A DNA stretch of 58,579 bases from a virus. The position numbers and the translations under genes are program-made. Below the pieces are notes generated by a model that had not been told where the DNA came from, did no database searches, and saw only the letters and a program-made list of their open reading frames with translations. Where the stretch lies: the IMG/VR virus record IMGVR_UViG_3300045988_039851, one strand, 5' to 3'. Of this stretch, positions 6,201 through 45,514 are shown in pieces. Position 1 is the first letter of the stretch, and every line of letters starts with the position of its first letter.

Positions 6201-7171
6201 GTCAGGTTCTTGGACAGAACGTATGCCTTGTCGCTGGCCAGACCAAACGAAGTGCCCAAGCTCTGGATGGTAGCCATGTAGGTCATCGCTTTGGTCGGGT
6301 CAACGCCAAGTAAGCCCTGCATCTTGCTAATGAGCGTATCAGCTTCACCGCTCAAATTACCCATAGCATTATGAAACAGGTCTGTTGCTTCGTAAAAGTC
6401 ATTGAACTTGGCAGCAGCGTTGCCAAGATACTCAGCGATAGCTTTCAACGAAACCAGCTTTGCCATGTTCCGCATAAAGCCGTTCATCTGATTGGACAGG
6501 CTGAGGTAGCTCTTGCGTTGCCTTTCGTTGGCAGCGGTCACACGGTTAGCCTGTGTAACCACCTTGCTCAACTGCGAAGGGAGCTTTGCAAACGCGTTGC
6601 CCACCTTGTCAAGCTGAGATGCAAGGGGAGTAATAGCAGTGGAAATCTTCTGGCAAGAACTTGCAAAAGAATCAAGGTCTGTCGATTTTAGCTTGTCGGT
6701 CAGGTCAGGAACCTTTCCAATCGCATTGAAAGCACTACCAAGAGCTTTAAGGCTCGATGCGTCCAGAATGGACAATGGAGCCAAAGCGTTAGTGAGCTGA
6801 GTAATGCTTCCAGACATAGAGTAAAAGTCCACGCCGTTCAGACCAGACACAGCCGCAGGGATCTTCTTGATTGCATTTACGACCGTGTTGATGCTCTTTG
6901 TGCTTGCGGTCGTGTTGACACTGGAAAGCCCGTTCAGAAAGCTGGTGATTTTGTCCAGTCCAGACATTCCGGCGGATGCCTGTTTCAGCGTTGCAATGGA
7001 ACCAGCCAGCTTGTCAAGGCTGTTCACAACCTTCGTGACGTTGCCTTTTGTCCGCAAATTAGAAATGGCGGCAGTAAGCTTGTCGATATTAAGCTCTGCG
7101 CCCTGCGATTCCACAGAAATCTCTACGGATAAGCTCGTAATATCAACATCAGCCATCACTACCACCATCAC
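3254..7171 (-). CDS. Tape measure protein
   Basis: 1305 aa, directly after the G/T chaperone pair, with long helical Ala/Ser/Gly-rich and hydrophobic segments. The start may instead be the ATG at 7156. Confidence 0.9.
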   Translation of the reverse strand: MMVVVMADVDITSLSVEISVESQGAELNIDKLTAAISNLRTKGNVTKVVNSLDKLAGSIATLKQASAGMSGLDKITSFLNGLSSVNTTASTKSINTVVNAIKKIPAAVSGLNGVDFYSMSGSITQLTNALAPLSILDASSLKALGSAFNAIGKVPDLTDKLKSTDLDSFASSCQKISTAITPLASQLDKVGNAFAKLPSQLSKVVTQANRVTAANERQRKSYLSLSNQMNGFMRNMAKLVSLKAIAEYLGNAAAKFNDFYEATDLFHNAMGNLSGEADTLISKMQGLLGVDPTKAMTYMATIQSLGTSFGLASDKAYVLSKNLTQLAYDEGSYWNKDVAETFTAMSSAISGEIEPIRRLGIDLSQARLQQELLALGFNKQVSSLSQADKAVLRYITIMKQTANVQGNLAQTIQSPANQIKTLKAQLDMLAKSVGSLLYPALKSILPPLIAAVQLIREFVEWVAKLMGVKVVFTDFTKSADSVGGIGDAMDDTADSTKKAAKALKDYTMGFDELNIIDPTQGSSGSGGGASAGNILGDVDLSGYDMFKNYVGNAVDEIKEKLRKLAPIVAAIGAGFATWAIGNALLTALKDTHGWAYKLGKIVGGLNPELLLVAGTVALIVGRFVQLYQNSENFRQGLARIKDLIYLAGLGFTQGWNISLTDGKLGESIKWLKEALSNLGQAIWNLIPEEWRGKISTAFETIQKVVKDLDLDLGDLVMTLIGIGLTISGHPVAGLAVLGFEAVSVAVRGLGSESEAEAFQLKSDWHDAFVNFGTIAAETVADIITALGNLINDFAILIGWIQNGVSETEMLDIQMNGNFLEGAIASLAQVIHNMGVFIGWIIKGVDESDRLAIAANGNFAEKFVLLIADVINGIKDAVTWFGKLIDKVSKFNPLSVGKNIIDGITKGITGNTNVSNDATKQLTDGIKKTAQDELDIHSPSKWFEGIGSYIDQGLANGITGALGYVNDAMNKLVDATKLKGEEMANYGIDCGTSYVNGIISGLDSKWAELDNNLKTNFFGTVQTFIQAAQSGDWKTVGTTIAAGIWGAMGDEQRKRAKSVASDLVSRLSKELKSQASSLLNTAATIGKNLVNSLTQNFGKVSSETQTMLSGITQAFGNVKSPLATAAKAISAALSGGLLSSFPTIFAGFAGLVSTIGTAVAGMLSAVGAALSATIFGLPAGIVALAAAATLGVAIAGIVSKLGGGRPTSSYSDTSQYVGSSSYNSSTSSSSYGGTYSAAGGNSEDMRDAVYNGCYNAFLDIWQRYGEELLKEQNVNVYLDGKQIAASVDKVKKDRGVSIMGTEVYSY

Positions 7172-7583
7172 TTTCCATCATAGAGAACATCATTCTCTTG
7201 ATTCGCTCCTGCGCCTCAACTGCGCGTTGGTATTCATACTCGTCTTTCTCCTTTTGGGTAAGGGGAATCGGTCTATCCATGTACTTGATAGGGCTAGACC
7301 CTTTTTTACGGAACATATTGCCAACCGTAGAGGAAAGCGCAGATGCCATGTAAAAGCCGTTTCTCCACGCTTCAGCATTGGCTCTGCGTTCTCGCAGCTC
7401 CTCTGCGTCACGGTAGACTTTCGCCAGCCAGACATCGCCGTGCCAGAACTGGTCGTAGGTCATGCCAATGGAGATGTAATAGGCTTCTACATCGTGGAAT
7501 AGCTTGGAGAAGGAGAATGGCTCTCCCTCTCCGTCTGCTTCCTGAGATTGTGCGGTTACACAATCTCCCACGTTGCGTTTTTT
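7149..7583 (-). CDS. -1 frameshift extension of the tail assembly chaperone (G-T fusion, 7903->7149)
   Basis: After a -1 slip at 7577-7583 the reading KKRNVGDCVTAQSQ.. matches ORF 7149-7571. Confidence 0.7.
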   Translation of the reverse strand, partial: KKRNVGDCVTAQSQEADGEGEPFSFSKLFHDVEAYYISIGMTYDQFWHGDVWLAKVYRDAEELRERRANAEAWRNGFYMASALSSTVGNMFRKKGSSPIKYMDRPIPLTQKEKDEYEYQRAVEAQERIKRMMFSMMESDGGSDG

Positions 7584-7903
7584 GCGGTCTTGTCCTCAGT
7601 GTCAGTTGCCAGCAGGGACTTGGAAGCGTCCATGAACATCTCAAGCAGAATGCCCATCAGGTCTTCCTTCTCCTCGATGTGCTGGAACATCTCGTCCACG
7701 ACCTTGCGCTTGATGCCCTTGTTCCGTGCGATAAACGCGCCGTAGAATAGGGCGCGGGAATTGGACAGCAGGTTGGTCATCTGGGTGTACTGGCCAATCT
7801 GAAAACCTGCGCGTTCGGTGGCTTCCACGCTGTCACGGGTAAAGGTCAGCTCATAAGTGTTCTTACCATCGGGGGAATGAAAGTTGATAACCTTAGCAGC
7901 CAT
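7556..7903 (-). CDS. Tail assembly chaperone (G-like)
   Basis: 115-aa ORF between the major tail and tape measure genes. It ends just after a slippery heptamer. Confidence 0.75.
   Translation of the reverse strand: MAAKVINFHSPDGKNTYELTFTRDSVEATERAGFQIGQYTQMTNLLSNSRALFYGAFIARNKGIKRKVVDEMFQHIEEKEDLMGILLEMFMDASKSLLATDTEDKTAKNATWEIV
7577..7583 (-). promoter_or_regulatory. Programmed -1 frameshift slippery site A_AAA_AAC
   Basis: Minus strand reads GCA AAA AAC in the zero frame, an X_XXY_YYZ heptamer 7 codons before the G stop. Confidence 0.7.
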
Positions 7904-7929
7904 AATAAATGCTCTCCTTTATAAATAGA

Positions 7930-7960
7930 GGCAGAACCAAATCCGTTGTTCAGTTCTGCC
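7930..7960 (-). terminator. Hairpin between the major tail and chaperone genes (possible attenuating terminator)
   Basis: GGCAGAAC..GTTCTGCC 8-bp stem followed on the minus strand by a U-rich CTCTATTTAT. Confidence 0.4.
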
Positions 7961-7987
7961 CGGTTTGATTGATTCGATTTTTGCGGT

Positions 7988-8425
7988 TTAGCCGCCAGTG
8001 ACAGTCAGGGTCTCGCTGAACTCAGGCTTCTTGGTGAAGATGCAGTTGATGGTCATTTCCACAACCTCGTCAACACCAAAGCCGGACAGGCCAACCTGAT
8101 GCATACCCTGCCAAGTGAAGCCGGAGCCGTCCTGCATCTTCAGGGCGTAGTACTTCACGGCGTTGCTATCGGAAGTCTCATCATAGCCAGCTTCCTTGAC
8201 CTTCTTGTAGTCAGTCTTGTTGTAGTTGGCAGTGAAAGACTTGGTGTCGCTCTGGATGATGCCAAAGATGTTGACCTGCATGGGGTCGGACAGGGTAGTT
8301 GCATCCAGAAGGTTCGGTTCGGAGATCAGGTCGGGTACATCCTTAATGTCGCACAGCTTCGTCAGAGCGGTTGCGCTGTCGCCACAATACAGGGTGGTAT
8401 TCAGACCGGAGATAGCAGTACTCAT
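7988..8425 (-). CDS. Major tail protein (putative)
   Basis: 145-aa ORF upstream of the G/T chaperones, the conserved siphovirus gene order. Confidence 0.7.
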   Translation of the reverse strand: MSTAISGLNTTLYCGDSATALTKLCDIKDVPDLISEPNLLDATTLSDPMQVNIFGIIQSDTKSFTANYNKTDYKKVKEAGYDETSDSNAVKYYALKMQDGSGFTWQGMHQVGLSGFGVDEVVEMTINCIFTKKPEFSETLTVTGG

Positions 8426-9360: not shown

Positions 9361-9727
9361 TTGCAGCCACCTCTTTCAGCGCATACAGCGTATCCGTGAT
9401 ATGCTCTGCGACCTTGACCACAATGTAATTGAAGGGCTTTGAAACGTCTGTCTGAAACCAGACACGCGTACCTTCATAAAGCGGTGTGTTGCGCTTTTTG
9501 CTGGACGAACTGACAACATAGCTGTAATCCGTGAATGCTCCAAAAGGGTTTGCTTCCGCAGAACCAGTAGGCGGGCTGACATTCAGCATCAGCTTTGCGG
9601 GGGCACTCCACGATTCGTATGCAGATTCGCCAGTTTCGTCGCCCGATTTGTCCACAACAGGCGTTTTCTCTCCGACCGGGTTTGAATACCACAGAGGGCG
9701 CTTATCCAGCGGGCTTCCATTGAACAT
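9350..9727 (-). CDS. Head closure / head-tail adaptor protein (by position)
   Basis: 125-aa ORF in the connector module. Confidence 0.5.
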   Translation of the reverse strand: MFNGSPLDKRPLWYSNPVGEKTPVVDKSGDETGESAYESWSAPAKLMLNVSPPTGSAEANPFGAFTDYSYVVSSSSKKRNTPLYEGTRVWFQTDVSKPFNYIVVKVAEHITDTLYALKEVAASEN

Positions 9728-12261: not shown

Positions 12262-12645
12262 TTAATCGATTCGTTCTCCTACCGCGTTATAAACCGCTTC
12301 TGCGCTTGTGACATCAGGCGCAGAAAAATTTGTAGGGACAAGATAAACCGGAAGCCCATAAAGCTTTGCAGCGTCAGCCTCCACAGTGCAGCCGTTATAC
12401 AGCCACGCATTATCACCGCAAATACCGATGAAATAATCAGCCTGCGAAAGGAGTTCGATGCTCTTGCCAAGATACCAAAGCCCTTCAGTTTTGCACTTAG
12501 GCGGGTTATCTTCGATATAGGTTGGGATAACCTCAAGGCTTTCGCCGTACACTGCTTCGGCAATCTTGTGCAAACGGTCAAATGTCATCCGAATATTTTC
12601 TTCCGACCGATTCTTCATCGGGCAGGAAATAAACAGCTTCTTCAT
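12262..12645 (-). CDS. Nucleoside 2-deoxyribosyltransferase-like (DUF4406-like) protein
   Basis: 127 aa. Pattern MKKLFISCPM..LLSQADYFIGICGDNAW..GCTVEADAAKLYGLPVY resembles that fold family (from memory). Confidence 0.4.
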   Translation of the reverse strand: MKKLFISCPMKNRSEENIRMTFDRLHKIAEAVYGESLEVIPTYIEDNPPKCKTEGLWYLGKSIELLSQADYFIGICGDNAWLYNGCTVEADAAKLYGLPVYLVPTNFSAPDVTSAEAVYNAVGERID

Positions 12646-14144
12646 TTTTGCTCTCCTTCCTTTGCATTAGCCTGTTCTCCAACCATTTTGTCGTTGTCGG
12701 CAATATGGTCTGTGGGCTGTTTCTGCGGCTTCGGTGCTTTCCCATCCTCGCCCAGCTTGCCAGCGGCAATCAGGAACGGCTTGCTCATTTCGTAAGCAGC
12801 CTGCGGGTCGGGGAACAGGCCGGGTGTGGTGAATGCCAACTGTGGGTCAATAGACTGACCGAGCATCTGTGCGAAAATCTGAACCTTGCTTTGCTGGTTA
12901 TCGTACTGGCGGCGTGGAAGTTTGATGTTGATGTCACTTGCCATCAGCTTAGAACCAGCCGTATCACGCAGGATTTTTAGCATCACAGACAGGCTCTGGC
13001 GTTCAGCATACTTGAACATATTCTCGTACTGCTGCGCCCTCGCTTCGGTGTGATTCCAGCCGTTGCGGACGATAACTGCGCCCACGTTGTCAGACGTTGC
13101 GTTCTCGCTACCAGTGGCACTAGGCATGGCAGTCAGGCTGCGGTACACGTTCAACATGGAATCAAGCAAGGTCTGGCTCTGCTGCTGGTCAAGCTCGTTT
13201 GCAATCTGCGATACAGAAGCGGGCAGACCAGAAGTGGATTTCAGGCACATTGCGCCAAGCTCTTTTACTTGGTCGAGAGCATCCTTGTCCACAAGGCAGT
13301 TGGTGAACACCATGATGGACTGGATGAACTGCGCCACGCCGTCCAAACGGTTGCTTTCAAGGTCGTTGATGGCATCCAGCACAGGGATAGCAGGCTCAAA
13401 CAGACCCATGCGCTCCGGGTTCAGCTTGTATTCGACCATCGGCAACATTCCAAGAGAGTGATTCTCAGACTTTGTAACCTTGCCGTTGTCGATTTCAAAG
13501 TACTGGTTTGGCGTATACACGCAAATCAGGTCGTTCAAGTCATTCTGATAATTGCGTGGGATATGCAGCACGTTGGCGATGGGCTTGTGGCCGATGCCGG
13601 AGTTGTAAATCACATACGCCATGTCCGGGTCGGGAACATCCACCAGCAGGGGCGTTTCGTCCGGGTAGTTGCCGTTGTACCCCTTGTCAGGAAGGACAAT
13701 GCGGTATCCCTGTCCACACTCCAACATCCACTGCCAGAGCCGCCGATCGAGCGCGTCCTTGCCCTCATACTGCAAGGCGTTGGACAGGCGGGCAATTTCC
13801 TCACCGTCACCAGTTGCCGTTTCAGACCGCACATAAGAGCAAGGAGTACCGCTCATATAGCCCGTGTAGAAGCCCACGCACTCGTTGGCGTGGTTCTCTA
13901 CAATGCGATTGGTGATTTCAGCGTGGTACTCCTTCGTGCGGTGGAGGACAGGCTGACTACCCAAGTAGTAGTTGTGCAAAAAGCGAATCTCGTTCTTGTT
14001 CAGCAGATGAATAGGTTCTGCCTTGCCCATGACCACTTTTAGCACGTTCTCTCGGTTAATTTCCGTCTCCGGTGTTTCAATCGGTCTACGTCCGGTCAGC
14101 GGCTCATTCAAAAAGCCGCCAACAACCATCTGATACTCAGCCAT
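12642..14144 (-). CDS. Portal protein
   Basis: 500 aa in the terminase-to-scaffold interval. ATG at 14144 follows a GGAAAGGAGG RBS. Confidence 0.85.
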   Translation of the reverse strand: MAEYQMVVGGFLNEPLTGRRPIETPETEINRENVLKVVMGKAEPIHLLNKNEIRFLHNYYLGSQPVLHRTKEYHAEITNRIVENHANECVGFYTGYMSGTPCSYVRSETATGDGEEIARLSNALQYEGKDALDRRLWQWMLECGQGYRIVLPDKGYNGNYPDETPLLVDVPDPDMAYVIYNSGIGHKPIANVLHIPRNYQNDLNDLICVYTPNQYFEIDNGKVTKSENHSLGMLPMVEYKLNPERMGLFEPAIPVLDAINDLESNRLDGVAQFIQSIMVFTNCLVDKDALDQVKELGAMCLKSTSGLPASVSQIANELDQQQSQTLLDSMLNVYRSLTAMPSATGSENATSDNVGAVIVRNGWNHTEARAQQYENMFKYAERQSLSVMLKILRDTAGSKLMASDINIKLPRRQYDNQQSKVQIFAQMLGQSIDPQLAFTTPGLFPDPQAAYEMSKPFLIAAGKLGEDGKAPKPQKQPTDHIADNDKMVGEQANAKEGEQK

Positions 14145-14236
14145 GTGCCCCTCCTTTCCGGCAAAATAAAAAGCGCAGCAAGACAAACCTGTTAAGGTCT
14201 ATCTCACTGCGCTTACAACTGCGCTTCAAAAGCTAT

Positions 14237-15086: not shown

Positions 15087-16754
15087 TCAAAATGGCCTCT
15101 TGACAGGCTCAATTTTGCTGATTCCGTTATACAATTCATCTGCAAGCTGTGCCAGACTGTCCGGTGCGTCATCGTGCGGAACTTTGCCAAGCTGCGTGAA
15201 CATCGTGACCTGTTCCATGAACGCCTTGTACTCTTTCGACTGGTGCTTCTCGTCAAGGAAATAGAACCGTTTGATGTCCGGCGCATACTGGATGATTCTT
15301 GACAGCTTGCTTTGCCCACTGGGCGCACGTTGGCTGCGGACAGAACAGTGATAGCCCTGTTGCCGGAGCTGGCTGTCTACCACATCACAGTATTCGTCAC
15401 CGCCGTTGTTGGCTTCGCCACGCACCACGTTGATTTTATGCTGAATGATTTTGCCCACAACTTCCGGTCTGGTCACGGTCTTATCGCCGTTATTGAACAC
15501 AAGGTCAGGGATGAACACAGCATCTCCGTACACATAAGCGATAGGACAGGCGGTGAAATCTCCGCCACCCCATGCAATATCCATGACCATGAGTTTGCGA
15601 TCAGGCTCACCATCAGGCAAAACGCCGTTGAAATACCGCAGTTCATCGGCAGGGAACAGCAGACCTTCACGCACATAGGGCTTGCCCATGTACTTTGCCC
15701 ACCATGTTGCATCATCAATGCTGGCTTTCATATCGGCATAGTAGGCATCATCAAAACCAACACCATAGTCATAATTAAAGTTACTGTGTCCGTTCTCATC
15801 CACCGCAGGAATCACCCGGAATCGGTACTTTGGGTTGTCTGCATACTGGTTCTGGATACGCCCCAGAGGGTCAAGCACGTTCCAGCGTGTACCGACCATC
15901 AGCTCTAATGCGCCTTGCTTTTTGCGGTCTTTCAACTGGTTCAGGTAGGCATCGTACTTGTTGTTCAGACGCTCAACGTTCAGGCTTTCCTCCAAGTCCT
16001 CGATCAGGTCATCACTGTACAGAACGCCGCCCTCGCCGATTTCAACAGCACCAGTCAGCGTACCGCCGATTGAGCGGCAAGTCAGGGTTGGGAAGCGCTT
16101 CTTTCGGTTCAGGTCAACGCTTTCGTCCTTTGCGCTTTTGTCCACAAGCTGAACGTCAGGGAAGATTTTACCCCAGTTGTAGGTTACAGGGTCGGTGATG
16201 ATGGACAGCACTTCGCCGTAGAAGCCGTTGGTCAGCTTGTCAGAGTGCCCGCTCATAACCGATGCAACGTCAGGGCGGTTGCCCATCAGCCATGTGATGA
16301 AAAATATACAGAGCGTACTCTTTCCAGTTCTCGGGGGCTGACTTACCCCAAGAAATTCTACACGATGGAAAAACAAGTCCTCTAGGTCACGAACCAACGT
16401 CAAAAGAACCTTTCTTCTCGGCTGATAGAACTTCTTCTCCGGCGCACGGTTCCATTCAAGGTAGATGCAATAGCTATCAAACACATCCCTTGCTTCAAAC
16501 AGGTAAGTTCGGCCGATAATGTCATAGGTCTTCGCTACGTCCTCGCCTGTTTTCATCTTGCCCATCATGGCTGCACAGACAGAGCGCAACTCACCAGAGT
16601 ACTTGTAGGCATCAAACCGCTTGTCTTGCGGCAGGGCATCTCTCAGGTTCACCACCGCCTGAAACCAGTCTTCATAGACCTGTGCTTCGGTCGGATTCTG
16701 CTTTGCATACGCTTTGATGCTGTCAATGATGGCGATACACTGCTTTGGCTGCAT
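15087..16754 (-). CDS. terL: Terminase large subunit
   Basis: 555 aa with Walker A-like GVSQPPRTGKST, Walker B-like VLYSDDLIED and a C-terminal nuclease-like region. Confidence 0.9.
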   Translation of the reverse strand: MQPKQCIAIIDSIKAYAKQNPTEAQVYEDWFQAVVNLRDALPQDKRFDAYKYSGELRSVCAAMMGKMKTGEDVAKTYDIIGRTYLFEARDVFDSYCIYLEWNRAPEKKFYQPRRKVLLTLVRDLEDLFFHRVEFLGVSQPPRTGKSTLCIFFITWLMGNRPDVASVMSGHSDKLTNGFYGEVLSIITDPVTYNWGKIFPDVQLVDKSAKDESVDLNRKKRFPTLTCRSIGGTLTGAVEIGEGGVLYSDDLIEDLEESLNVERLNNKYDAYLNQLKDRKKQGALELMVGTRWNVLDPLGRIQNQYADNPKYRFRVIPAVDENGHSNFNYDYGVGFDDAYYADMKASIDDATWWAKYMGKPYVREGLLFPADELRYFNGVLPDGEPDRKLMVMDIAWGGGDFTACPIAYVYGDAVFIPDLVFNNGDKTVTRPEVVGKIIQHKINVVRGEANNGGDEYCDVVDSQLRQQGYHCSVRSQRAPSGQSKLSRIIQYAPDIKRFYFLDEKHQSKEYKAFMEQVTMFTQLGKVPHDDAPDSLAQLADELYNGISKIEPVKRPF

Positions 16755-17094: not shown

Positions 17095-17652
17095 TCACCT
17101 TGCGGCTTTCGCACGGTTTGCGTCATAATCAGCAAACATAGACGCTGCAATCTTCATGGCTTCTTCTATTGTAGGATCCTTGATGAATGCTCTGCATCCA
17201 AACAGAACTCCGCTTGCATTTGTTTTGCTATTTTCTGGAATGATGTAGATTTTTCCGTTTTCGCGTTTGGCAAGCCATGTAGGAGTACTCCTGTATGCTT
17301 CTTCTTTCGCCTTGCGTTCAACTTCCATTTTTCCACGGACTTCCTTGAAAACAACATCAGCTTTCCGCTCTGCATCTTGCTTAGACCACGCATCGACATA
17401 AGCGAACCCTTGACCAATGATAACATTTTTCTCAACGTTATCTAAATGCGATTCACAGCAATCTGCGTCACCATAGGCATAAACCGTATAAGTGAGTGGT
17501 TTTGCCGTCAACTCTTCGGTATCCTCGTATTCTTCAACATCGGCATCGTACATCTCTGCGATTTTCTCCGCACGTCTACGGCTCTCGGTCAAAGTAATGA
17601 TATGATAATCCTCGCATCCACCGCTTGTCACTGCGTAAAGTTTTCTAGCCAT
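17095..17652 (-). CDS. Hypothetical protein
   Basis: 185 aa from the ATG at 17652 (RBS AGGTGA), directly after the recombinase stop. Confidence 0.6.
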   Translation of the reverse strand: MARKLYAVTSGGCEDYHIITLTESRRRAEKIAEMYDADVEEYEDTEELTAKPLTYTVYAYGDADCCESHLDNVEKNVIIGQGFAYVDAWSKQDAERKADVVFKEVRGKMEVERKAKEEAYRSTPTWLAKRENGKIYIIPENSKTNASGVLFGCRAFIKDPTIEEAMKIAASMFADYDANRAKAAR

Positions 17653-17656
17653 ACTT

Positions 17657-18232
17657 TCACCTGTTCTGTTCAGCAATCCGATACCATGTCTGGCGGGTCA
17701 CGCCAAGCTGTTTGGCGGCGTCCGTGACCGTAAGAATACGTTTCTCCACCTGCTCATGGAGAACGTCAAAGAGGTTGCGGTCATACTCCGTTGGTTTGCG
17801 GCCTTCCTTGTAATCGGGGCGCTGACTGGCAATCTTCTTGCCCTCTCTGGTGCGTTCAACAATCATGTCACGCTCAAACTCTGCAAAGGCAAGCATAACA
17901 GTTCGAATGACCTTGCCGGTGGGGGAGTTATTCATAACCCCAATGTTCAGGATGTTCACCGAAACGCCCTTATCAATGAACTGGTCTATCAGTTCAAGAC
18001 CATTCTTAGCGGAACGAGCAATGCGGTCAAGCTTCGCCACGATCAGCGTGTCTCCCGGCTGGATTTCAGCCATCAGCTTGTCCAGTTCAGGTCGATGCAG
18101 CTTTGTGCCGGTGTAAACATCCGAAAAGATTTTCTGTGCGCCGTTGGCTTTCAGAAGTTCCGACTGGGCTTCAAGGCTGTTGCCGTCAATCGCCTGACCA
18201 GCGGAACTGACACGAGCGTAACCGTAGATCAT
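17657..18232 (-). CDS. Small serine recombinase (resolvase/invertase family) with C-terminal HTH
   Basis: 191 aa. N-terminus [13 protein letters not shown] with the catalytic Ser motif; C-terminal [21 protein letters not shown]. Confidence 0.9.
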
Positions 18233-23475: not shown

Positions 23476-23670
23476 ATGAACAAGCTTGTTTTTGAAGTGA
23501 ACAACGGCAGAAAATTGGAACTTGTGCAGCGGGAGGACAACGGAACGACCCTTATTTGTTCCCTCGATGCACCGGACAACGAGGCATATATAAGCGCTGG
23601 CGACTTTGTGCAGCTGATTAACCTTTACCGCTACTGCAAGCGGTACGATATCAAAAAACGATTGGATTAA
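23476..23670 (+). CDS. Hypothetical protein
   Basis: ATG at 23476 follows GGGAGG. Confidence 0.6.
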   Translation: MNKLVFEVNNGRKLELVQREDNGTTLICSLDAPDNEAYISAGDFVQLINLYRYCKRYDIKKRLD

Positions 23671-23702
23671 CCCCAACGGCAAAAATACGGAGGTATAATA
23701 AA

Positions 23703-23900
23703 ATGACCAGATCGGACGAATTGAACGCAGAAATCAGAAATCAGGCCGTGCACCTATATCCCAAGTGCGCCGGGCTGTTTGAGTTGCCATTGATGGTATA
23801 CACTCAGATTGTAGCGGACAACCTGACCCGCTCCAAGCCGTACCGCTTGAGCGTTGAGCGGTGCAAAAAAATTATTCTGGCAATGCCGGAGTTTGATTGA
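23703..23900 (+). CDS. Hypothetical protein
   Basis: ATG follows ACGGAGG. Confidence 0.6.
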   Translation: MTRSDELNAEIRNQAVHLYPKCAGLFELPLMVYTQIVADNLTRSKPYRLSVERCKKIILAMPEFD

Positions 23901-23915
23901 TGGAGGTTTTACAGT

Positions 23916-24011
23916 ATGATTACTTTGGACTTTACCCAGTGGGCCGCCCTCTGGTATGTGGGCGGCATGATCTCCGGCGCACTCGTTATGATCGCATTTC
24001 TCAACAGCTAA
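23916..24011 (+). CDS. Tiny membrane protein (31 aa)
   Basis: ATG follows TGGAGG; translated by hand (MITLDFTQWAALWYVGGMISGALVMIAFLNS). Confidence 0.45.
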   Translation: MITLDFTQWAALWYVGGMISGALVMIAFLNS

Positions 24012-24027
24012 CAAGGAGGGCTAAAAA

Positions 24028-24291
24028 ATGACGATGTTTGAAGAAAAGGTGAACGCATACCGCGAAAACAAGCGGTTAATTGAAGAGCTTGAAGCGATGA
24101 ACGACGCCGTAAAGGCTGAAATTATTGACATGATGCACGGCGCGCCCGAAATGGTACAAGGCACTGCGAAAGCCATTTACAAGGACGTGCAAAGCGTCCG
24201 GCTTGATAGCAAGCTTTTACATGCAGCGCACCCAGATATTTATGCTGAGTGCAGCAAAAAGACCGTTTACAAACGGTTTAGCGTGGTATAA
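24028..24291 (+). CDS. Hypothetical protein
   Basis: ATG follows AAGGAGGG. Confidence 0.6.
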   Translation: MTMFEEKVNAYRENKRLIEELEAMNDAVKAEIIDMMHGAPEMVQGTAKAIYKDVQSVRLDSKLLHAAHPDIYAECSKKTVYKRFSVV

Positions 24292-24377
24292 GGAGGTGCA
24301 ACAAGTGTCCTGCATCCTGTTTTTATTTTGGTTTTTTAGTGCCTTGTTTAAGGCCAGCAAGTGAGGAGGGCTATATA

Positions 24378-24542
24378 ATGACTACTACCACCATTAAGGG
24401 CATTGACCCCATGACCGGACTGTATATCACCCGATACTATGCGCGCAAAGCCTGCCCCGGTGATTGCGTTGTTGTCAAGGTCTGCGGCGGCTATACCATC
24501 ATGGCCGCAGCTGATTATAACATCTGGCGATGCCAGCGTTGA
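24378..24542 (+). CDS. Hypothetical protein
   Basis: ATG at 24378 follows GAGGAGGG; 54 aa. Confidence 0.55.
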   Translation: MTTTTIKGIDPMTGLYITRYYARKACPGDCVVVKVCGGYTIMAAADYNIWRCQR

Positions 24543-24559
24543 CCCACTTTCCACTTCAA

Positions 24560-24590
24560 CCCCGCCCACGTGGCGGGGCTTTTCTTTTGC
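24560..24590 (+). terminator. Rho-independent terminator ending the 23024-24542 operon
   Basis: CCCCGCCCAC/GTGGCGGGG stem followed by CTTTTCTTTT. Confidence 0.75.
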
Positions 24591-25031
24591 CTTGCATCTG
24601 CTGAGGGTGCAGGGCTTTTATTTTGCCCTGTTGCAATATGCCTAAATACAAGCGTTTACAGAGGCTTTTATATCATCCATGCAGTTATACCGCCAACACC
24701 TCAAAACAGCGCACAGAGCTTTACAGAGGCTTTTCCTGTGATTATACCCGCTCAACCGACCACGATACCAGACCGACAAAAGCGGCTATAATATCGCCCG
24801 TGTAACGTTGGAGCGTATCACAGCGCCTCCAGCACATACCAGATACCAGATACCAGACAGCCGTGCCGGACGCTGTACAGGTCAGCGTAGTTGCCCTATT
24901 ATAATAAGGTATATAAGGGTGCGCCGCAGACCATGCAAGCCCAGCGGGGTTTCGATACTTTCCACGCCCAGCGGCTTGCGATCTGACACCGGTCAGCAGT
25001 CAGGGCGCACCGGCTGGAATAGTTGTAGCCA

Positions 25032-26076
25032 ATAGTCGTAGTTTCTCCGATAAAATAGTCGTGGAATAGTCGTAAAGTCGTCTGACAACTAGCTTTTGAA
25101 AGTCCTATATATCGTATATTAACCAGCAGTTTGCTGATAGTCGTAGAGTAATAGCCGTAGCGTTTTCTTGCGAATCATCGTCAAATAGTCGTGTATTTTT
25201 TGTATGAAATGGTCGTTCGCCTTTTAGAGAAAGAGAGATGCGATAGTCGCTAAGTCGTCCGACCATTCCCAAAATCAATAACTGTCAAGACACCTATCAG
25301 TTTTAATCCTAGTTACATTACCTCAAAATCTTTAACCATCGTACTTATTATAATAGTCGCAGACAATTACTCAATCTTTTTAACTATTATTCCACTGAAA
25401 TAGTCGTACCATCCGATTCGGTTCGTTCTTCTTCGATTTAATTGCCAACAGCCACAATCATATCATATTAATCAACTAGAATTATCCATTCAGCAAATAC
25501 TTCAATACTTTTAACTATCTAATAAAACCATCCAGCTGGTCAGTTGCTTTCAATCTGTAATCAACCGCTCATACCGCCATGCAACATTTCTACATATTCA
25601 ACCTACCACAAAATGAAGTCAATTCTCCATGTGAAATAGTCGCAGACCATCTACCAGTCTGAACCTCACGCCGGTTCTCTCCTACTGTCTGCTCTGCTGG
25701 CTAACGGTATAGTTTTGGAGATAGAGGGTTGTAGGGAGAAAGAACCTTTGTGGAAACATTTGGTTGTCGTTTTCAGTTGTCGCAGTTGTCGCACCATTTT
25801 GGCGTGGGGACATGAAATAGCTTGTCTATTTCATGGAAGGGAGATAGAGAGATAGATAGATAATAATAGGGGGTTATAGGGGGGAAGAAGAAGGAAGGAA
25901 GAGAGGAAGATTGGATGCAAACGCATCACGTGCATCCATTTGCATGCAAACGCATCACGCTTATAGTCGTAGCCATATCAGCCCAAACGACACTCGATCG
26001 AGACGGTTCCCGCTCAAAATCAGACATTGCCGTTTTCTCTCGATAAATAACAAGAGAAAAAAGCGCGGAATAGTCG
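25032..26076 (+). repeat. Dispersed same-strand array of ATAGTCG boxes around an AT-rich core
   Basis: Exact copies start at 25032, 25055, 25066, 25137, 25185, 25243, 25353, 25400, 25636, 25963 and 26070, plus at least 8 one-mismatch copies. Confidence 0.85.
25915..25959 (+). repeat. Two ATGCAAACGCATCACG boxes flanking TGCATCCATTTGCAT
   Basis: 16-mers at 25915-30 and 25944-59. The 15-mer at 25931-45 recurs at 28659-73. Confidence 0.85.
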
Positions 26077-26150
26077 CAGAGGGTAGTTTTACCACCTGAT
26101 ACCATTCCATGCTTTCTGATACAATAGTTCTGTAGCCGCACGAGCTGAGA

Positions 26151-26453
26151 TTAGATATTCTTACTCTCTCTTGCTTTACGCAGACGTTCTGCAAGTGCTG
26201 CACGCTGCTCTTCGCTGATTTCACGGGTGATGGGCGAGCGGAACTTCACAAGACGCTTCGGCATCGAATAGGTCTTGGATTCCTTGCACCGCTTGGCAGA
26301 CAGTTCCTCCATGAACTTGTACGTATCAGGGAACTGCTCACAGAGCTTGTCCAGCTTGCGAATGTAAACCGGGTCTGCTGTGTAGACTTCTGCGGTATCC
26401 TCCGCTGCGTTGAAGGTGATGATGGTTTCACGTTCGATGTTGGTAAGTGCCAT
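26151..26453 (-). CDS. Hypothetical protein (last gene of the early operon)
   Basis: 100-aa ORF with an RBS-like AAGGAGAAAAC. Confidence 0.6.
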   Translation of the reverse strand: MALTNIERETIITFNAAEDTAEVYTADPVYIRKLDKLCEQFPDTYKFMEELSAKRCKESKTYSMPKRLVKFRSPITREISEEQRAALAERLRKARESKNI

Positions 26454-26472
26454 AGTTGTTTTCTCCTTTGCG

Positions 26473-26682
26473 TTATTTTTGGTTGATTTTCTTTTTTGGA
26501 CAAGTTTCTGGCAAATAATCCATGCAAGCTCGGCATGAAATGGTCTTTCGACAAATCATTCGTTCTGCTCGTTCTTTCTCTTCTTGTTCGCGTCTTTGGC
26601 ACTCTCGCTTGTACTCTTCTTCGTGCCGTCTGTATGCATTGGCGATGATGATAGCATGGACAGCAGCCATGTTTGGAACCAT
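26473..26682 (-). CDS. Hypothetical Cys-containing protein
   Basis: 69-aa ORF with RBS AGGAGGAAAAG. Confidence 0.55.
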   Translation of the reverse strand: MVPNMAAVHAIIIANAYRRHEEEYKRECQRREQEEKERAERMICRKTISCRACMDYLPETCPKKKINQK

Positions 26683-26822
26683 AGTCTTTTCCTCCTGTAT
26701 TTTGTGTAGTGAAAAATATTTATGGGGTTCAGACGGTAACTTTATCGCCCAAACCCTGTTATCTGTTTTTCTTGCCTATTCTACTATGGCGATACGAGCG
26801 TAGAAGCGATGTTAGGCTACTA

Positions 26823-27098
26823 TCACTCAATCGCTTCGTATGTTTTCTCGAAAATGTCAGGTTTACACGGGTAGATTTCGCCATTTACGCCACGAATAAT
26901 ATAATCGCCAGTCCTCGCAACCATAGTTCCTTCAAGCGTTTTAATTTCGCACCACGCAGGTCCATCGTAAAACTTTCCGAAGTCATGCGTGATAATATCA
27001 TTGCTACTTACTGCATCCCAGAACCAATCTTCTCCAACAAGCCCTCGTGCATTGAGCTTGAATGCTTCGATAACAACTGGCTTCTTGCGGTATTTCAT
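26823..27098 (-). CDS. Hypothetical phage protein
   Basis: ATG at 27098 follows AGAGGAG, after the dnaB stop. C-terminal motif [25 protein letters not shown]. Confidence 0.6.
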
Positions 27099-27114
27099 GT
27101 TTATTCTCCTCTTA

Positions 27115-28338
27115 TTACATCCACACGCATTCTTTGAATTGCTGTGTTTCCATCTGGAACGTGATGTCAAGCGTCCCCACGTTTCCCTCTTTGTTCTTCT
27201 CAAGCGCAAAGTGATAATGCTCTTCTGGTCTCTTTTGCGTTTTTACTTTCTGCGCCAGCAGGATGATTGCATCTGCGTCCTGCTCGATTTGCCCGGATTC
27301 TCGCAAGTCTGCGGCAGTTGGTGGAATGCCCGCTCTTGCGGTCTCTCGATTGAGCTGTGCAAGTGCTACCACCAGCGTTCCTGTGGACTGTGCGAACTCA
27401 TGCAGTGCCATGCTGATCTCCGTGACGGCACTGTATCGGTCTTTCGCTCCGGCTTGATGGATAAGCTGCAAATAGTCGATGAACGCTACTTTGGCTTGCA
27501 TCCTGATGGACTGCGTTCTAATCCACCCTACGCTCTTACCAGCGGCAGAGCGGACGAACAGCGGATATTTTTTGATAGCTGCCAGCCTGTCAAGTTCTTC
27601 AATGCTGACGGTCTTGTTTTTGACCGTGTGCAGCGGTACGCCTAGCTGGTTTGCGATAATACGGGCATAGAGCGTATCTGGGTCTGTCTCTAGGCTGAAA
27701 TACGCCACTTTGCGTCCGTTCTTGGCTATTTCACAGGCAAGTTGCAGGGACAGAGCAGTCTTACCAGCAGACGGTCTGCCGCCGATCACAACGAAGTTTC
27801 CCGGCACAAGATGCAAGTTGTTATCCAGCACTCTAAGCCCTGTGCTGATATACTCCGGCTTATCATCCAGCTTGCGGATGTAGTTGTCTATGCCATCGCA
27901 CATCGGGATGAAATCGCTTCTCTCGTTGTGCAGGTTGATCGCTTCGCCTAGCTGCTCATAGATGCCTGTCAGGTCTGCATATCTGGTCGAACCATCAACG
28001 ATTTTGAATGCAATCTCTCTGGCTCTGGACAACGCTGCCTGTTCCTTGACGATTCCAGCCCACCCAAGCATCATGTCATGGGTGACGTTACGGATGAACT
28101 CTGCACCAAAGGCATCTAGACATTCACCCATTGCTTTCTTGCAGTTATCGTACCGTCCCATGACTTCTACCGGGTTCCATTTGTCGTTGTGTTCCCAATA
28201 ACCAAGAATGGCAGCGAATGTATCATGCAGTTCAGGGCAGAAATCGTCGATTTTAAGGTCTTGCAGCACATCAGCGTATTCCGAAAACGTGAGGACTGCT
28301 CCCAGCAGGATGTATTGGGTCTGATTTTCAATATTCAC
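27115..28338 (-). CDS. dnaB: Replicative DNA helicase (DnaB family)
   Basis: 407 aa with Walker [15 protein letters not shown] and a DnaB-type C-terminal domain (FIDYLQLI.., IILLAQ). Confidence 0.9.
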
Positions 28339-29003
28339 CGCAGAAAGTCTCCCTCGTCAGGCAATTCAGCCATTGTCTGCTGATAGCCACCATTCCAGTC
28401 CTTCACGTTACGCATCCAGTTCCGTGCAGCGGCTTTCCAGTCCTTCATAGGCGATTTTCCAACCTTCCAGCCATTTGCCGTGAAGTGGTCAACAAACCGC
28501 TCTGCTTCTGATTCCATGTAGCCCTTCTCGGAAAAGTATTCTCTGGCTTGCTCGACAGTCGGTGCTTTGAAGCGTTTTACTTCGTTGGTATTTTTCTTTT
28601 CACATTTTTCTTTTTTATCAAATTCAGATACAGAATCAGATACAGATAAGGCATCGTTTGCATCCATTTGCATATTTTGCATACCAGTGTATGCGTTTGC
28701 ATCATTGGTATGCGTTTGTATGCACTTGCATTTTTCATTCTTCCAACGCTTATTTGCACTTCGTCTGTTTTTCTCGATTCGCTCCTGTCTTTTCTGTGCA
28801 TTCATATCATCAAATGCCTTAACAACTTTCCAGAGCATCCGCATAGCACGGTCGTTGTCGTATGCTGGTTCAAGTCCAGTCTCAACATACTGCGCGTAGT
28901 TGCGGATGAATGCTCCAAATTCCTCGTCTGTAAGCTCATCCATCGCATGAACATGTTCCAACAAAAGAATCATTGATGTTCTCGGCTTGTGTTCCTGCTC
29001 CAT
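28335..29003 (-). CDS. Replication initiator / replisome-organizer-like protein
   Basis: Lies directly upstream of dnaB with a 4-nt overlap. C-terminal motif FKAPTVEQAREYF..FVDHFTANGWKVGKSPMKDWKAAARNW. Contains an internal repeat array. Confidence 0.55.
   Translation of the reverse strand: MEQEHKPRTSMILLLEHVHAMDELTDEEFGAFIRNYAQYVETGLEPAYDNDRAMRMLWKVVKAFDDMNAQKRQERIEKNRRSANKRWKNEKCKCIQTHTNDANAYTGMQNMQMDANDALSVSDSVSEFDKKEKCEKKNTNEVKRFKAPTVEQAREYFSEKGYMESEAERFVDHFTANGWKVGKSPMKDWKAAARNWMRNVKDWNGGYQQTMAELPDEGDFLR
28658..28731 (+). repeat. Phased TTGCAT/TTGTAT boxes inside the replication gene (candidate origin)
   Basis: Boxes start at 28658, 28668, 28677, 28697, 28716 and 28726 (spacings 10, 9, 20, 19, 10). 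The tandem CAGATACAGA x2 lies just upstream. Confidence 0.6.
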
Positions 29004-29005
29004 AT

Positions 29006-29236
29006 TCAGTCCTCTTTGTAGCGTTTGTTCCATGCTTCGATAAGGTCGGCTTTAATTCTTTCTTTATCCTTTTCGGAGCAATCAAACCAATACTCCCCAC
29101 TTTCCATAAAAACACGGCAAGTGCATTTGTTTTCTCCGTGCGCTCTCGAAATAAACATCCATTTCTTTACATCAGTCCCTGTTTCCGCAATAGCCACTTT
29201 CCCACCGCAGAACGGGCATCTCTTGAGTTCTGTCAT
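29006..29236 (-). CDS. Lar-family-like restriction alleviation protein
   Basis: 76 aa with an N-terminal LKRCPFCGGK zinc-ribbon motif (family recalled from memory). Confidence 0.5.
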   Translation of the reverse strand: MTELKRCPFCGGKVAIAETGTDVKKWMFISRAHGENKCTCRVFMESGEYWFDCSEKDKERIKADLIEAWNKRYKED

Positions 29237-31779: not shown

Positions 31780-32564
31780 TATTTGTCCTCCCCAACGTCC
31801 TTGAACAGAATTTCTTTGTCAGCTTTCCAGTCTTTGATTTTGCACGGAATGTCCGTGCCGGGAACGGTCTTTTTCAGCCCATCCATCTGCCAGACGTTCC
31901 ATGAGATGATAGCAGCCATGTTGCGAACCTTCCCAGCGTCAGGCTCTATGCCGAACAGCCACTTAAAGTTCTCTCGCCATGTCAGGAGCATATTTGCTCT
32001 TGCAAGCAACAGGCTGTCACCTTGCCACTCATAGCCGTATGTAGTCGTCGCTGCGTCCTCTGCCACATCGTGCCATGTCCAGACATTCCAATCAAACCAG
32101 TTGTTTACACATTTCAGTTTGCGGTCAAACAGCCCTTTCCGTCTTGGCACCGGAATCTTTTTGCCTGTTACCGTGTCGTATCGGTTCACAAGGAATGGCG
32201 CTTCTCCGCAGGTGATTTCAAGAACTGTCGAATGGATGTACTTGATAGGCTCTTTCTTCATATCGGGCATCGCACCGTTTTCTTCGCCTATGTCTATCAT
32301 CTTTTCGCAAACCCAAGAAGGAGTGAAAACCTCTGCTTTTGCTTTGGTTCTTTGCTTCTGCTCATCCAAACGCTTGAGAACTCGTGGCACTGGCGGGCAA
32401 TTCTTGATTTGTTCTAACGTGATTTCATCCGTAAATCCTGCGCCTAGTTCAGACGGTGGCTCTGTCGCCCAGATGATGTTTTTGCCGGTAGTACGGTCTT
32501 TAAGCAAGATAAACAGCACCGCTGAAAGAATCGGGTCGGAGAAGTCAACCAACCGTTGTTTCAT
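31779..32564 (-). CDS. DNA-modification (methyltransferase-like) protein, putative
   Basis: ATG at 32564 follows GAGGTGGTGG. Motifs EVFTPSWVCEKM, LEITCGEAPFLVNRYD and YGYEWQGDSLLLARANM. Confidence 0.4.
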   Translation of the reverse strand: MKQRLVDFSDPILSAVLFILLKDRTTGKNIIWATEPPSELGAGFTDEITLEQIKNCPPVPRVLKRLDEQKQRTKAKAEVFTPSWVCEKMIDIGEENGAMPDMKKEPIKYIHSTVLEITCGEAPFLVNRYDTVTGKKIPVPRRKGLFDRKLKCVNNWFDWNVWTWHDVAEDAATTTYGYEWQGDSLLLARANMLLTWRENFKWLFGIEPDAGKVRNMAAIISWNVWQMDGLKKTVPGTDIPCKIKDWKADKEILFKDVGEDK

Positions 32565-33312
32565 TTTCCACCACCTCTCTGTACTCCACGTCAATTCCTT
32601 TCGGCAAAGCCGTCTGGTACTTCTGGGCGAGTTGTTCTGCGCTCTGAGCATCGCCCAACGGCTGTTCAGGCGGCGCAACGGTGACTTCCACGTTGTCACG
32701 CATACCAAAGTAGTTCTTGGCTCGGAAAATCCACTCTGCCGGGTTCTCCTGACCGTACATACCGTTGTACGCCCACATGGACTGCATTTGCAGAATCAGC
32801 TTCAAGATGTACTTCTGCTGCAAGCTGTCGTCACGGCGTTTGCCCGCCATAATCTGCTTCAGGCTCACCCATTCGATGCCAAGCACCAGTGCAATCCATT
32901 CCACCACAGGGGAGATTCTGGCTTCGATGCAAGCGTCAAAGAAGAAGTCAAGACGTTGCTGCACTTCAATCGGGTTGTTCATGTCCACGCTCGGAAGGTC
33001 GCCAAAATACTTGGCTGCAATCATGCCGATGACCTTCTTGTCCTCTTCATCACCGATTCTCGACTGCAAATCGCCTGTATTCAGCATCTTAGACCTCGTG
33101 ATCGCTAGCTCTTGTTGTTCTTTCACCTTTTTACTCACCTGTGAGCGGATAGATTTCCGCTTGTTAAGCATCTGTTGTTTCTTCTTCTCTCGCTCTTTCT
33201 CACGCTTCGCAGCGGCTTCTTCTTTCGCCTTTTGCGCCCGCTTCTCACGCTTTTTCTTCTCAGCTTCGGTCAGTGGCGGTCTGCCACGACCACGCTTCGG
33301 GGGTGTTGCCAT
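32545..33312 (-). CDS. Terminase small subunit-like protein
   Basis: 255 aa with a basic N-terminus. Pattern FFFDACIEARISPVVEWIALVLGIEWVSLKQI..NPAEWIFRAKNYFGMRD resembles the Terminase_2 family (from memory). Confidence 0.55.
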   Translation of the reverse strand: MATPPKRGRGRPPLTEAEKKKREKRAQKAKEEAAAKREKEREKKKQQMLNKRKSIRSQVSKKVKEQQELAITRSKMLNTGDLQSRIGDEEDKKVIGMIAAKYFGDLPSVDMNNPIEVQQRLDFFFDACIEARISPVVEWIALVLGIEWVSLKQIMAGKRRDDSLQQKYILKLILQMQSMWAYNGMYGQENPAEWIFRAKNYFGMRDNVEVTVAPPEQPLGDAQSAEQLAQKYQTALPKGIDVEYREVVENETTVG

Positions 33313-41352: not shown

Positions 41353-41580
41353 TTACTGCTTATCTCTTACAAGAAGAGCATCCACCGACACGCGGAAGTA
41401 ATCAGCGACTTTCACAAGCTGTCGAACGCTCGGCCCATTTGCGGAGCGTTCCCACTTGCCCAGTGCGCCGTTGCTCAAACCAGCAGCTACTTCCAAGTCA
41501 GTACGAGACAGACCATGCAACTTGCGAAACTCGTCGATTTTAGAAAGATTCACTAGCCATTCTCCTTTCTGGGCTTGCAT
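41353..41580 (-). CDS. Cro-like XRE HTH regulator (first gene of the early operon)
   Basis: 75 aa with LHGLSRTDLEVAAGLSNGALGKWE. Divergent from the 41781 HTH gene. Confidence 0.75.
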   Translation of the reverse strand: MQAQKGEWLVNLSKIDEFRKLHGLSRTDLEVAAGLSNGALGKWERSANGPSVRQLVKVADYFRVSVDALLVRDKQ

Positions 41581-41780
41581 TTTACTAGAAAATATGCTAC
41601 TATGTAGTTGCGAGGTACAAAGTGAACATTTTCCAGCGACTTCCCGATAGATTTTTCAGGGGTCTTGGTTTTTGTTTGCCCTGTGCTTCATATTATACTA
41701 GCCAAGTGGCTATTTTTCAATAGTCAATCTTCAATTCCGTGAACATTTGGCTATTTGCACAAAAAGAGAGGTCTTTTTCT

Positions 41781-43546: not shown

Positions 43547-43587
43547 TTGTCGAATTATCGAAGTTTTTACGGTATACAGGGGGACGT

Positions 43588-43605
43588 GTTCCACTTTTTG
43601 TACAC
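43588..43605 (-). repeat. Inverted copy of the Rep iteron
   Basis: The reverse complement reads GTGTACAAAAAGTGGAAC. Confidence 0.75.
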
Positions 43606-43759
43606 AATAGACCTGTTATAAATATAGTTTTGGGTTGTCATTTTGTCCCCCATAGAATCGTAAATAGTGGATTTTTGCGGATGTAATTAACGAACTCGCG
43701 TGAAATTTTCGTTCACCAAAGGGTGACTTGTCAATTCGTCCCCTATTGGTGTGATTGCA

Positions 43760-43776
43760 CTCCATTTTCTGTACAC
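43760..43776 (-). repeat. Inverted copy of the Rep iteron (degenerate)
   Basis: The reverse complement reads GTGTACAGAAAATGGAG. Confidence 0.65.
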
Positions 43777-43948: not shown

Positions 43949-43955
43949 TAAGAAC

Positions 43956-44058: not shown

Positions 44059-44080
44059 GTCGATTGTTAAAAAAATAATT

Positions 44081-45512: not shown

Positions 45513-45514
45513 AA

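Follow-up and report, generated by a model that had tools for sequence, protein, structure and literature searches.

The window, that is the whole stretch of 58,579 nucleotides analysed here (IMG/VR virus record IMGVR_UViG_3300045988_039851), contains between two convergent operons a non-coding tract of 1.6 kb (positions 24543-26150) in which the heptamer ATAGTCG is repeated along one strand. The two ends of the window (1-91 and 58489-58579) are an identical 91 bp, and from this exact overlap we take the window to be a circular assembly of a 58,488-bp genome; since a packaging module, a Rep_3 initiator and ParA occur in one element, this genome is a phage-plasmid. In human gut data it is very common: at least 587 viral contigs recovered by a pattern scan encode a relative of its small terminase subunit (TerS), and the TerS proteins of the best 80 of these contigs are 97-100% identical. 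The + strand operon has its last stop at 24542 and the last - strand gene occupies 26151-26453, as the first-pass annotation of this DNA had described. Its statement that the tract is non-coding also holds, none of the 10 open reading frames (ORFs) of 43-75 amino acids being intact in more than 6 of 19 aligned relatives. An Rfam scan of 23500-27000 gave only sub-threshold matches, all of them on terminators, and no family match; the tract has no match in plasmids, and the nearest tRNA, the only one in the window, is far off.

A genome-wide count recovered the eleven exact boxes previously reported in the tract, all on the + strand (starting at 25032, 25055, 25066, 25137, 25185, 25243, 25353, 25400, 25636, 25963 and 26070, the last one ending at 26076), and the extended form of the box can be written as (A)ATAGTCG(T/C)AG. 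In the entire window ATAGTCG occurs 13 times, while dinucleotide-preserving shuffles gave a mean of 3.7 (standard deviation 1.8, maximum 9). The copy at 27472, which had been noticed as the only isolated one outside the tract, does exist but is not alone, a second one being found at 55136. The first six exact boxes fall in a dense cluster together with six variants, namely ATAGTTG at 25019, AAAGTCG at 25074, ATAGCCG at 25151, ATCATCG at 25174, ATGGTCG at 25209 and TAAGTCG at 25252. Among the copies formerly listed as having one mismatch, those at 25074, 25151 and 25209 are correct, whereas those at 25174 and 25252 and the three GTTGTCG differ at two positions; the copy at 25019 was missing from that list and is a further true one-mismatch copy on the + strand. 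Across the window one-mismatch copies are not enriched (124 found, 109 +/- 11 expected). Two occurrences of CAGCGACTT, of the AAGTCG type and on the - strand, were also observed at 41403-41411 and 41634-41642, in the divergent early regulatory region that goes from an antirepressor gene to a helix-turn-helix gene, possibly by chance.

Conservation along the tract was evaluated, per column and per 30-nt bin, in an alignment of 20 relatives (Table 1). In the dense cluster the columns are 0.86-0.91 conserved, and its identity is 77-92% in all relatives, whatever DnaB allele they carry. The AT-rich core reported by the first-pass annotation is real and includes CTTTTAAC boxes, but it coincides with the part of the tract least conserved among relatives, a spacer that in many of them is alignable only in part. 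On its right side the conserved segment contains a highly conserved island at 25683-25745 (CTGCTGGCTAACGGTATAG..GGAGATAGAGGGTTGTAGGG), which is kept also in L253, a distant cousin whose TerS is 37% identical. A G-rich sequence, GGGTT(A/G)TAGGG, is present on the + strand at 25726 and 25871, in conserved or purine-rich stretches, and recurs reverse-complemented in L253 (15600-15860); the same motif, GGGTTRTAGGG, was looked for near the diverged arrays of unrelated phages and not found. The following segment, 25761-26012, includes a perfect hairpin with a 10-bp stem (25811-25835), a purine tract of about 70 nt (25840-25910) and direct repeats of 20 bp, present twice. It is kept in 15 of 15 relatives whose DnaB is 94-99% identical to that of the window and missing in all 17 relatives with a DnaB of 49-50% identity, as well as in L001 (DnaB 88%). 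This segment is part of the replication cassette, of which it may be the lytic origin. The last portion, 26013-26150, is found only in relatives having the neighbouring gene of 100 amino acids, two of which gave no detected match, and the whole right-hand part of the tract (25761-26150) would belong to the same cassette.

Table 1. Features of the window related to the box array, with their coordinates
Feature	Position	Strand	Remarks
Portal gene	12642-14186	-	SPP1_portal match
terL, large terminase	15087-16754	-	Terminase-T7_RNaseH-like match; 52% identity to the annotated TerL of Clostridium phage Maintenon
Small serine recombinase (resolvase/invertase)	17657-18232	-	PF00239; just upstream of terL
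GC-rich spacer	24543-25017		Moderately conserved
Two intrinsic terminators	24560-24615	+	Stems at 24560-24578 and 24589-24615, each followed by a T run; close the + strand operon
Dense cluster, 12 boxes in 240 bp	25019-25258	+	Proposed core TerS recognition array
Variable AT-rich spacer	25263-25580	none	Dispersed boxes 25353 and 25400; conservation 0.23-0.78, the minimum of the tract
Conserved segment	25581-25760	+	Box 25636; conservation 0.88-0.96; found in all relatives
Replication-cassette-linked segment	25761-26012	+	Three GTTGTCG, hairpin, purine tract, two TTGSATGCAAACGCATCACG, box 25963
Conserved 3' flank of gene 26151-26453	26013-26150	+	Box 26070; conservation 0.83-0.95
DnaB-like helicase	27115-28338	-	Part of the putative mosaic replication cassette between terS and array
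DUF6291 protein	28335-29033	-	Part of the putative mosaic replication cassette between terS and array
terS, small terminase	32545-33312	-	P22 gp3 / GP3_package type; proposed box binder
Rep_3 plasmid origin, five iterons	43955-44057	+	Iterons of 21-23 bp, CGTGTACAAAAAGTGGAG; upstream of rep (44148-45245)

Viral contigs were scanned for three ATAGTCG boxes separated by gaps of 4-30 nt per pair, using no protein information. At least 120 loci were obtained and, among the matches listed, 55 are homologous to the tract and keep its boxes, while 65 are not; many of these 65 loci, which have no nucleotide similarity with the tract, carry 8-18 boxes on one strand. When all ORFs of the window were compared with the non-homologous loci, the proteins in common were packaging and head proteins, plus the product of ORF 32545-33312. 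At a relaxed threshold a homologue of this ORF (21-48% amino acid identity) adjoins the array in 33 of the 65 non-homologous loci among the matches listed, and in those 33 the coding strand of the gene has at least four CGACT (the reverse complement of AGTCG) from -200 to +700 of its stop, the other strand at most one. Of the other non-homologous loci, most either are truncated at the array or consist of simple tandem repeats.

ORF 32545-33312 encodes a TerS of the P22 gp3 type. The window protein itself stays below the Pfam and PHROG thresholds; among 18 of its homologues, 13 match PF16677 (GP3_package; best E value 1.4e-13) and 11 match phrog_606, "terminase small subunit". Distant homologues for which a PF16677 assignment was already precomputed are connected to the window protein by phmmer E values from 2.5e-36 to 4.3e-9. 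The AlphaFold2 model has a predicted local distance difference test score (pLDDT) of 77, exceeding 90 over the helix-turn-helix region. A coherent match of its fold was obtained to two structures alone, the P22 gp3 nonamer (3p9a) and 2ao9, of which the former is the better, and the Foldseek E values are weak (1.5-6); over six chains of 3p9a the probability is 0.44-0.75, the target TM-score 0.40-0.58 and the root-mean-square deviation 3.2-3.8. The independently annotated TerS of Clostridium phage Maintenon is homologous to the window protein (26% identity, E value 1e-6), and a search of a phage collection with the window TerS returned unannotated close relatives only. A second TerS beside TerL was also considered, and the candidate, ORF 17095-17676, was discarded as it shows no Pfam, PHROG or profile similarity. 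The two terminase genes of the window are unusually split: terS is surrounded by early and replication genes, 15.8 kb away from terL. Maintenon and the relatives with compact arrays also show a gap between the two genes, of 2-3 kb.

The association between array and terS was found again when the motif was ignored. We collected 49 terS loci from bacterial assemblies, one genome per species, by protein similarity alone, and they belong mostly to Oscillospiraceae, Ruminococcus, Lachnospiraceae and other Clostridia, with few Bacteroidota. A CGACT array lies on the terS strand in 26 of the 49, in the flavours CGACTAT, CGACTTT and CGACTCT. On average over all 49 loci the density of CGACT reaches 17.3 per kb in the first 200 bp past the terS stop; it is 4.8 per kb within the final 200 bp of the gene, 0.2-1.9 elsewhere and 0.3-0.8 on the opposite strand. 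For 53 distinct arrays, counting the boxes of the densest cluster gave a median of 8 (mode 8, interquartile range 6.5-10) over a span of 140 bp, and this cluster begins at a median of -23 relative to the terS stop. In diverged arrays the opposite strand has a median of no boxes, with a maximum of two, and the orientation of the boxes relative to terS is constant in every case, window included. A minimal array (L083) is made of five GATAGTCGCTYG boxes with spacings of 11, 11, 22 and 13 bp, abutting the terS stop codon. A profile of 478 boxes can be summarised as GA(T/A)AGTCG(C/T)T, with preferred spacings of 7, 9, 11 and 13 bp. No gene family other than terS is a constant neighbour of the array in the 41 loci compared.

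Box sequence and TerS relatedness agree at the level of clades. For the box flavour (TAT, TTT or TCT), 19 of 26 nearest-neighbour pairs of TerS agree, with 10.1 +/- 2.9 in shuffles, and for the box class 29 of 47, with 20.3 +/- 3.9. Residue-level covariation between the TerS helix-turn-helix and the flavour was inspected by eye and gave nothing convincing, the concordance being limited to clades. In one locus (L210, 4245-4300) the stretch from the terS stop to the contig end is taken up by at least six tandem copies of another box, GCAGAAAGC(C), and weaker GCAGAAAGC boxes, in two or three copies, occupy the same place at terS in two further loci (L231 and L204). These loci look like a motif switch within one architecture.

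In close relatives of the window the distance between terS and the array is 4.3-7.2 kb, and the intervening genes code for small ORFs, a helix-turn-helix protein, a zinc-ribbon protein, the DUF6291 protein, DnaB and others. The 17 relatives with a DnaB of 49-50% identity and a divergent or undetected DUF6291 protein keep the dense cluster at 77-91% identity over 85-100% of its length, and in those whose locus extends to terS the TerS identity is 94-99%, with 68% in L106. L253 (a 58.7-kb contig) has the same order of terS, small genes, DUF6291, DnaB and a non-coding tract, which in this case measures 1.8 kb and carries nine exact CGACTAT on the terS strand. Since boxes and TerS are stable while the DnaB allele is swapped, and the layout of L253 is alike, the boxes follow TerS and not the replication module. 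Synteny suggests that in the window lineage a mosaic replication cassette of 4-7 kb was inserted between terS and the array.

These data bear on the hypothesis that the boxes are the iterons of a lytic origin, to which a replisome organizer (the DUF6291 protein) would bind in order to load DnaB at the AT-rich core; a second origin was also among the roles listed in the first-pass annotation. The tract lies directly downstream of the DnaB/DUF6291 module, it combines an AT-rich stretch with one-strand repeats, and the segment 25761-26012 tracks the DnaB allele, so that a part of the tract may indeed be related to an origin. However, the boxes are the same in the 17 relatives with another DnaB and a different or undetected DUF6291 protein, the boxes of diverged phages abut terS and not replication genes, no AT-rich unwinding element is conserved, the AT-rich spacer being where conservation is lowest, and the cumulative GC skew shows no inflection at 25 kb. 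We consider this hypothesis very unlikely for the boxes themselves.

The minimum of the cumulative GC skew is found instead at 41-42 kb, near the iterons of the Rep_3 origin (Table 1), which are preceded by an AT-rich stretch (43900-43950) and accompanied by inverted copies at 43587-43609 and 43760-43780 and by partial copies at 44078-44110, just before rep. As these iterons have their own, unrelated sequence and lie 18 kb from the array, the array is not the Rep_3 origin. It was also proposed that the boxes could be a plasmid centromere, or a copy-control array acting by handcuffing or titration, for the block at 44-47 kb that holds Rep_3 and ParA. Both genes are indeed present in this phage-plasmid; repeats were sought beside parA and no obvious centromere-like set was found, which leaves room for a centromere elsewhere, and short direct repeats are a typical feature of the centromeres to which ribbon-helix-helix proteins bind. 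On the other side, Rep_3 already has five iterons and inverted copies of its own beside rep, a distance of 18-19 kb separates the array from the rep and par genes, and the same boxes are located beside terS, not rep or par, in many phages and integrated prophages, with no Rep_3 or ParA homologue in the fetched loci. A centromere or copy-control role is in our opinion extremely improbable.

Additional information comes from Clostridium phage Maintenon (ON453900, 57,045 bp), a cultured relative whose host is [Clostridium] innocuum and whose annotated terS occupies 26723-27472 of the record, 2.65 kb upstream of terL. Virion reads of this phage analysed with PhageTermVirome gave a direct terminal repeat (DTR), reported as "DTR Short (478 bp) 27,277" (PMC10197239, Table 2), and in that study prophages were extracted and annotated from exact coordinates (PMC10197239). 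Assuming that 27,277 is a coordinate of the record, the terminal repeat goes from 195 bp before the terS stop through 282 bp downstream of it, and on these coordinates the ends of Maintenon therefore map at the 3' end of terS, in the same place as the box arrays of the other phages. The 3' region of its terS has one pair of 14-bp direct repeats, TTTGTTAGCTTATA. The window TerL has a weak match with the T7-type terminase nuclease domain, and a sequence search of the PDB with this TerL matched nothing. Taken together, the short repeat of Maintenon and the weak T7-type match make short terminal repeats, instead of headful ends, a real possibility for this phage-plasmid.

On this basis we propose, with a probability of about 0.65, that the ATAGTCG boxes are the recognition array of TerS and therefore a cis-acting packaging signal of this 58.5-kb phage-plasmid. 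A TerS pac region had been one of the four roles listed in the first-pass annotation, which drew no link with the terS gene at 32545-33312, and it is the option favoured by the evidence; the general idea of one-strand boxes serving as a protein-loading platform thus holds, while the other roles suggested for it do not find support. All 11 exact boxes of the tract lie on one strand, an asymmetry of the pac type. According to our model, a ring oligomer of TerS would bind the head-to-tail boxes, above all those of the dense cluster, and their single orientation would give the TerS-DNA complex its polarity; the complex would recruit TerL, a cut would be made nearby and packaging would start from it, yielding either a headful series or short terminal repeats. 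The dispersed boxes between 25353 and 26076 might extend or loop the complex, or might be remnants. Known TerS rings are built of 8-11 subunits, whose DNA-binding elements lie at the periphery at intervals of about one DNA turn, and about 100 bp of DNA are thought to be wrapped around them (PMC4737164). A median of 8 boxes over about 140 bp fits rings of this size, and as the subunits of a ring are related by rotation, their sites are expected head to tail, which agrees with 8-10 direct boxes in one orientation over such a span.

Several observations weigh against this proposal. The array of the window lies at some distance from both terminase genes, 6.4 kb in the case of terS and 8.3 kb in that of terL, and its length of 1 kb, dispersed boxes included, exceeds that of the compact arrays found elsewhere. 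No AGTCG array is present within 5 kb in 21 of 47 loci with a full-length terS homologue; no AGTCG boxes were found in Maintenon, and the position of its ends depends on the assumption about coordinates made above. The concordance between box flavour and TerS could be explained by the co-inheritance of adjacent DNA. The isolated DNA-binding domain of SF6 TerS has little sequence specificity, and the helix-turn-helix-like motif of P22 gp3 is occluded (PMC4737164). The helical phasing of the boxes is weak, with a broad peak at 10.75-12 bp. Finally, an unrelated viral contig of 9.8 kb from another environment (L056) has 36 ATAGTCG on both strands, at 6250-8140 and 9527-9693, in AT-rich intergenic DNA and including the palindromes ATAGTCGCGACTAT; it possesses a TerL-like gene and no homologue of the window TerS. 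L056 appears to be a different system using the same heptamer.

The last two points could be used in favour of another interpretation, in which the boxes act as RNA (CGACUAU repeats in the 3' untranslated region of the terS/early operon, sequestering an RNA-binding protein) or as operators of a regulator other than TerS, for an early-to-late switch: the phasing is weak, and L056 uses ATAGTCG in another context, with palindromes typical of dimeric regulators. Moreover, in the window and elsewhere the strand carrying the boxes is the sense strand of the upstream operon, and since this is always so, a function as RNA is formally possible. Against it, there is no Rfam match and no gene for an RNA-binding protein or regulator as constant neighbour; the one constant partner is TerS, a DNA-recognition protein, and the virion ends of a relative would map to the position of the array (PMC10197239). 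We judge this interpretation quite unlikely.

We judge equally unlikely the possibility that TerS binds the boxes with no packaging role, as autoregulation or titration of TerS in the plasmid or lysogenic state, or that the array is a res-like site for the serine recombinase. The array of the window is unlinked from terS and unusually long, and in 19 of 41 array-bearing diverged phages a homologue of the recombinase separates the terS array from terL; this enzyme could serve in multimer resolution of the plasmid form or in the inversion of a DNA segment. A decoy, however, leaves unexplained why the array is at the terS stop across phages, and it leaves the Maintenon terminus unexplained as well. 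As to a res-like site, the recombinase is missing from more than half of the array-bearing loci and, where it does occur, is 2-3 kb away from the array; resolution sites, moreover, consist of inverted-repeat subsites and not of 8-18 direct heptamers.

Starting from the packaging signal that we favour, a wider hypothesis can be formulated. AGTCG arrays might serve as a "packaging code" common to a large clade of phages from gut Clostridia, in which each TerS subunit takes one box; in the window lineage the array would have been captured beside a lytic origin (25761-26012), coupling TerS loading and replication initiation on one 1.6-kb region, and DNA bearing the boxes, such as satellites, plasmids and chromosomal pseudo-sites, could be cross-packaged by unrelated phages. 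As a whole we regard this hypothesis as speculative and rather unlikely.

Some other features of the element were recorded. Its + strand module comprises helix-turn-helix regulators, the Rep_3 initiator (44148-45245) and ParA (45500-46285). The - strand carries a module for head, tail and packaging, to which the portal, TerL and serine recombinase genes belong, and an early and replication module with DnaB and the DUF6291 protein. An 87-amino-acid protein encoded at 24028-24291 (phrog_434/1956) has homologues 1-2 kb from box arrays in about a dozen unrelated phages, mostly in the orientation opposite to that of the window. The G+C content is 0.55-0.60 at 49000-58579 and 0.41-0.53 elsewhere; the genes of this region are on the - strand, with one DUF7841 protein and few family matches, and by position they represent the tail module continuing across the circle junction. 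Many contigs of the family (L101, L112, L039, L028 and L055) are about half-length, 29-32 kb, and several of them end within 0-2.5 kb of the tract, the boxes of L101 starting 51 bp from the contig start; such ends could be physical DNA ends, or the assembly may have broken at the mosaic junction. The use of contig ends to deduce physical ends was abandoned, as the positions of terS and array vary among contigs of 55-60 kb and headful ends, terminal repeats and plasmid form are not told apart in this way.

How a small terminase chooses viral DNA is a long-standing open question, the known pac sites being few, idiosyncratic and weakly sequence-specific in vitro. The family described here offers a short, sharp box in about 8-10 copies, near the number of subunits of a TerS ring, in one orientation and in many diverged gut phages and prophages. 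With this array, TerS-DNA structures, packageable vectors for Clostridia and forecasts of packaging sites and transduction hot spots from gut metagenomes become directly testable. The window lineage also indicates that a swappable replication cassette can come to separate a recognition site from terS. The literature was searched for the motif and for repeats downstream of terS; nothing relevant was retrieved, and no publication describing the array was found.

Among known systems, in the pac site of P1 PacA binds seven TGATC(A/G) hexamers, grouped in two clusters with the cut between them. As in our array, many copies of a very short box form a terminase recognition site, but the P1 boxes are Dam-methylated, are inside pacA, seven in 162 bp, and have no homology with our system in sequence or protein. 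In T7, we verified in nt 175-341 of the sequence a one-strand array of CCTAAAG-like heptamers; SRL/SRR have about 12 one-strand heptamers and immediately adjoin the 160-bp terminal repeat, T7 being a phage whose packaged genome ends in short direct repeats. They differ from the array in the motif, in the regular 13-bp spacing and in the TerS, and their function in T7 is itself not settled. Rep_3 iteron origins resemble the tract in having direct repeats beside an AT-rich stretch, whereas the iterons of this element are longer (21-23 bp), regularly spaced, adjoin rep and have an unrelated sequence.

The pac of SPP1 and SF6 (pacL-pacC-pacR, with boxA, boxB and boxC) is also made of direct repeats beside terS, thought to be bound by the G1P TerS ring of helix-turn-helix domains (PMC4737164). 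Its repeats, however, are few (pairs) and located at the terS promoter and 5' end, and the isolated domain is little specific, while here 8-18 copies of one short box lie at the terS 3' end or, in the window, 6.4 kb off, and the TerS belongs to the PF16677 family. Lambda cosB (R1-R3, bound by gpNu1) and P22 pac (AAGATTTATCTG inside gene 3) are likewise TerS sites in or next to terminase genes, and P22 gp3 is a structural relative of the window TerS; but lambda has three 16-bp sites plus an IHF site and P22 one asymmetric site (PMC11226127), and neither has a multi-copy array or an ATAGTCG-like sequence. A likeness with P22 pac, through a supposed AAGTCG in that site, was dropped because its functional core is AAGATTTATCTG (PMC11226127). 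The array would fall in a known category, that of terminase recognition sites, differing from the described ones in its motif, its copy number, its position at the 3' end of terS, its TerS family, its breadth and, in the window, its separation from terS.

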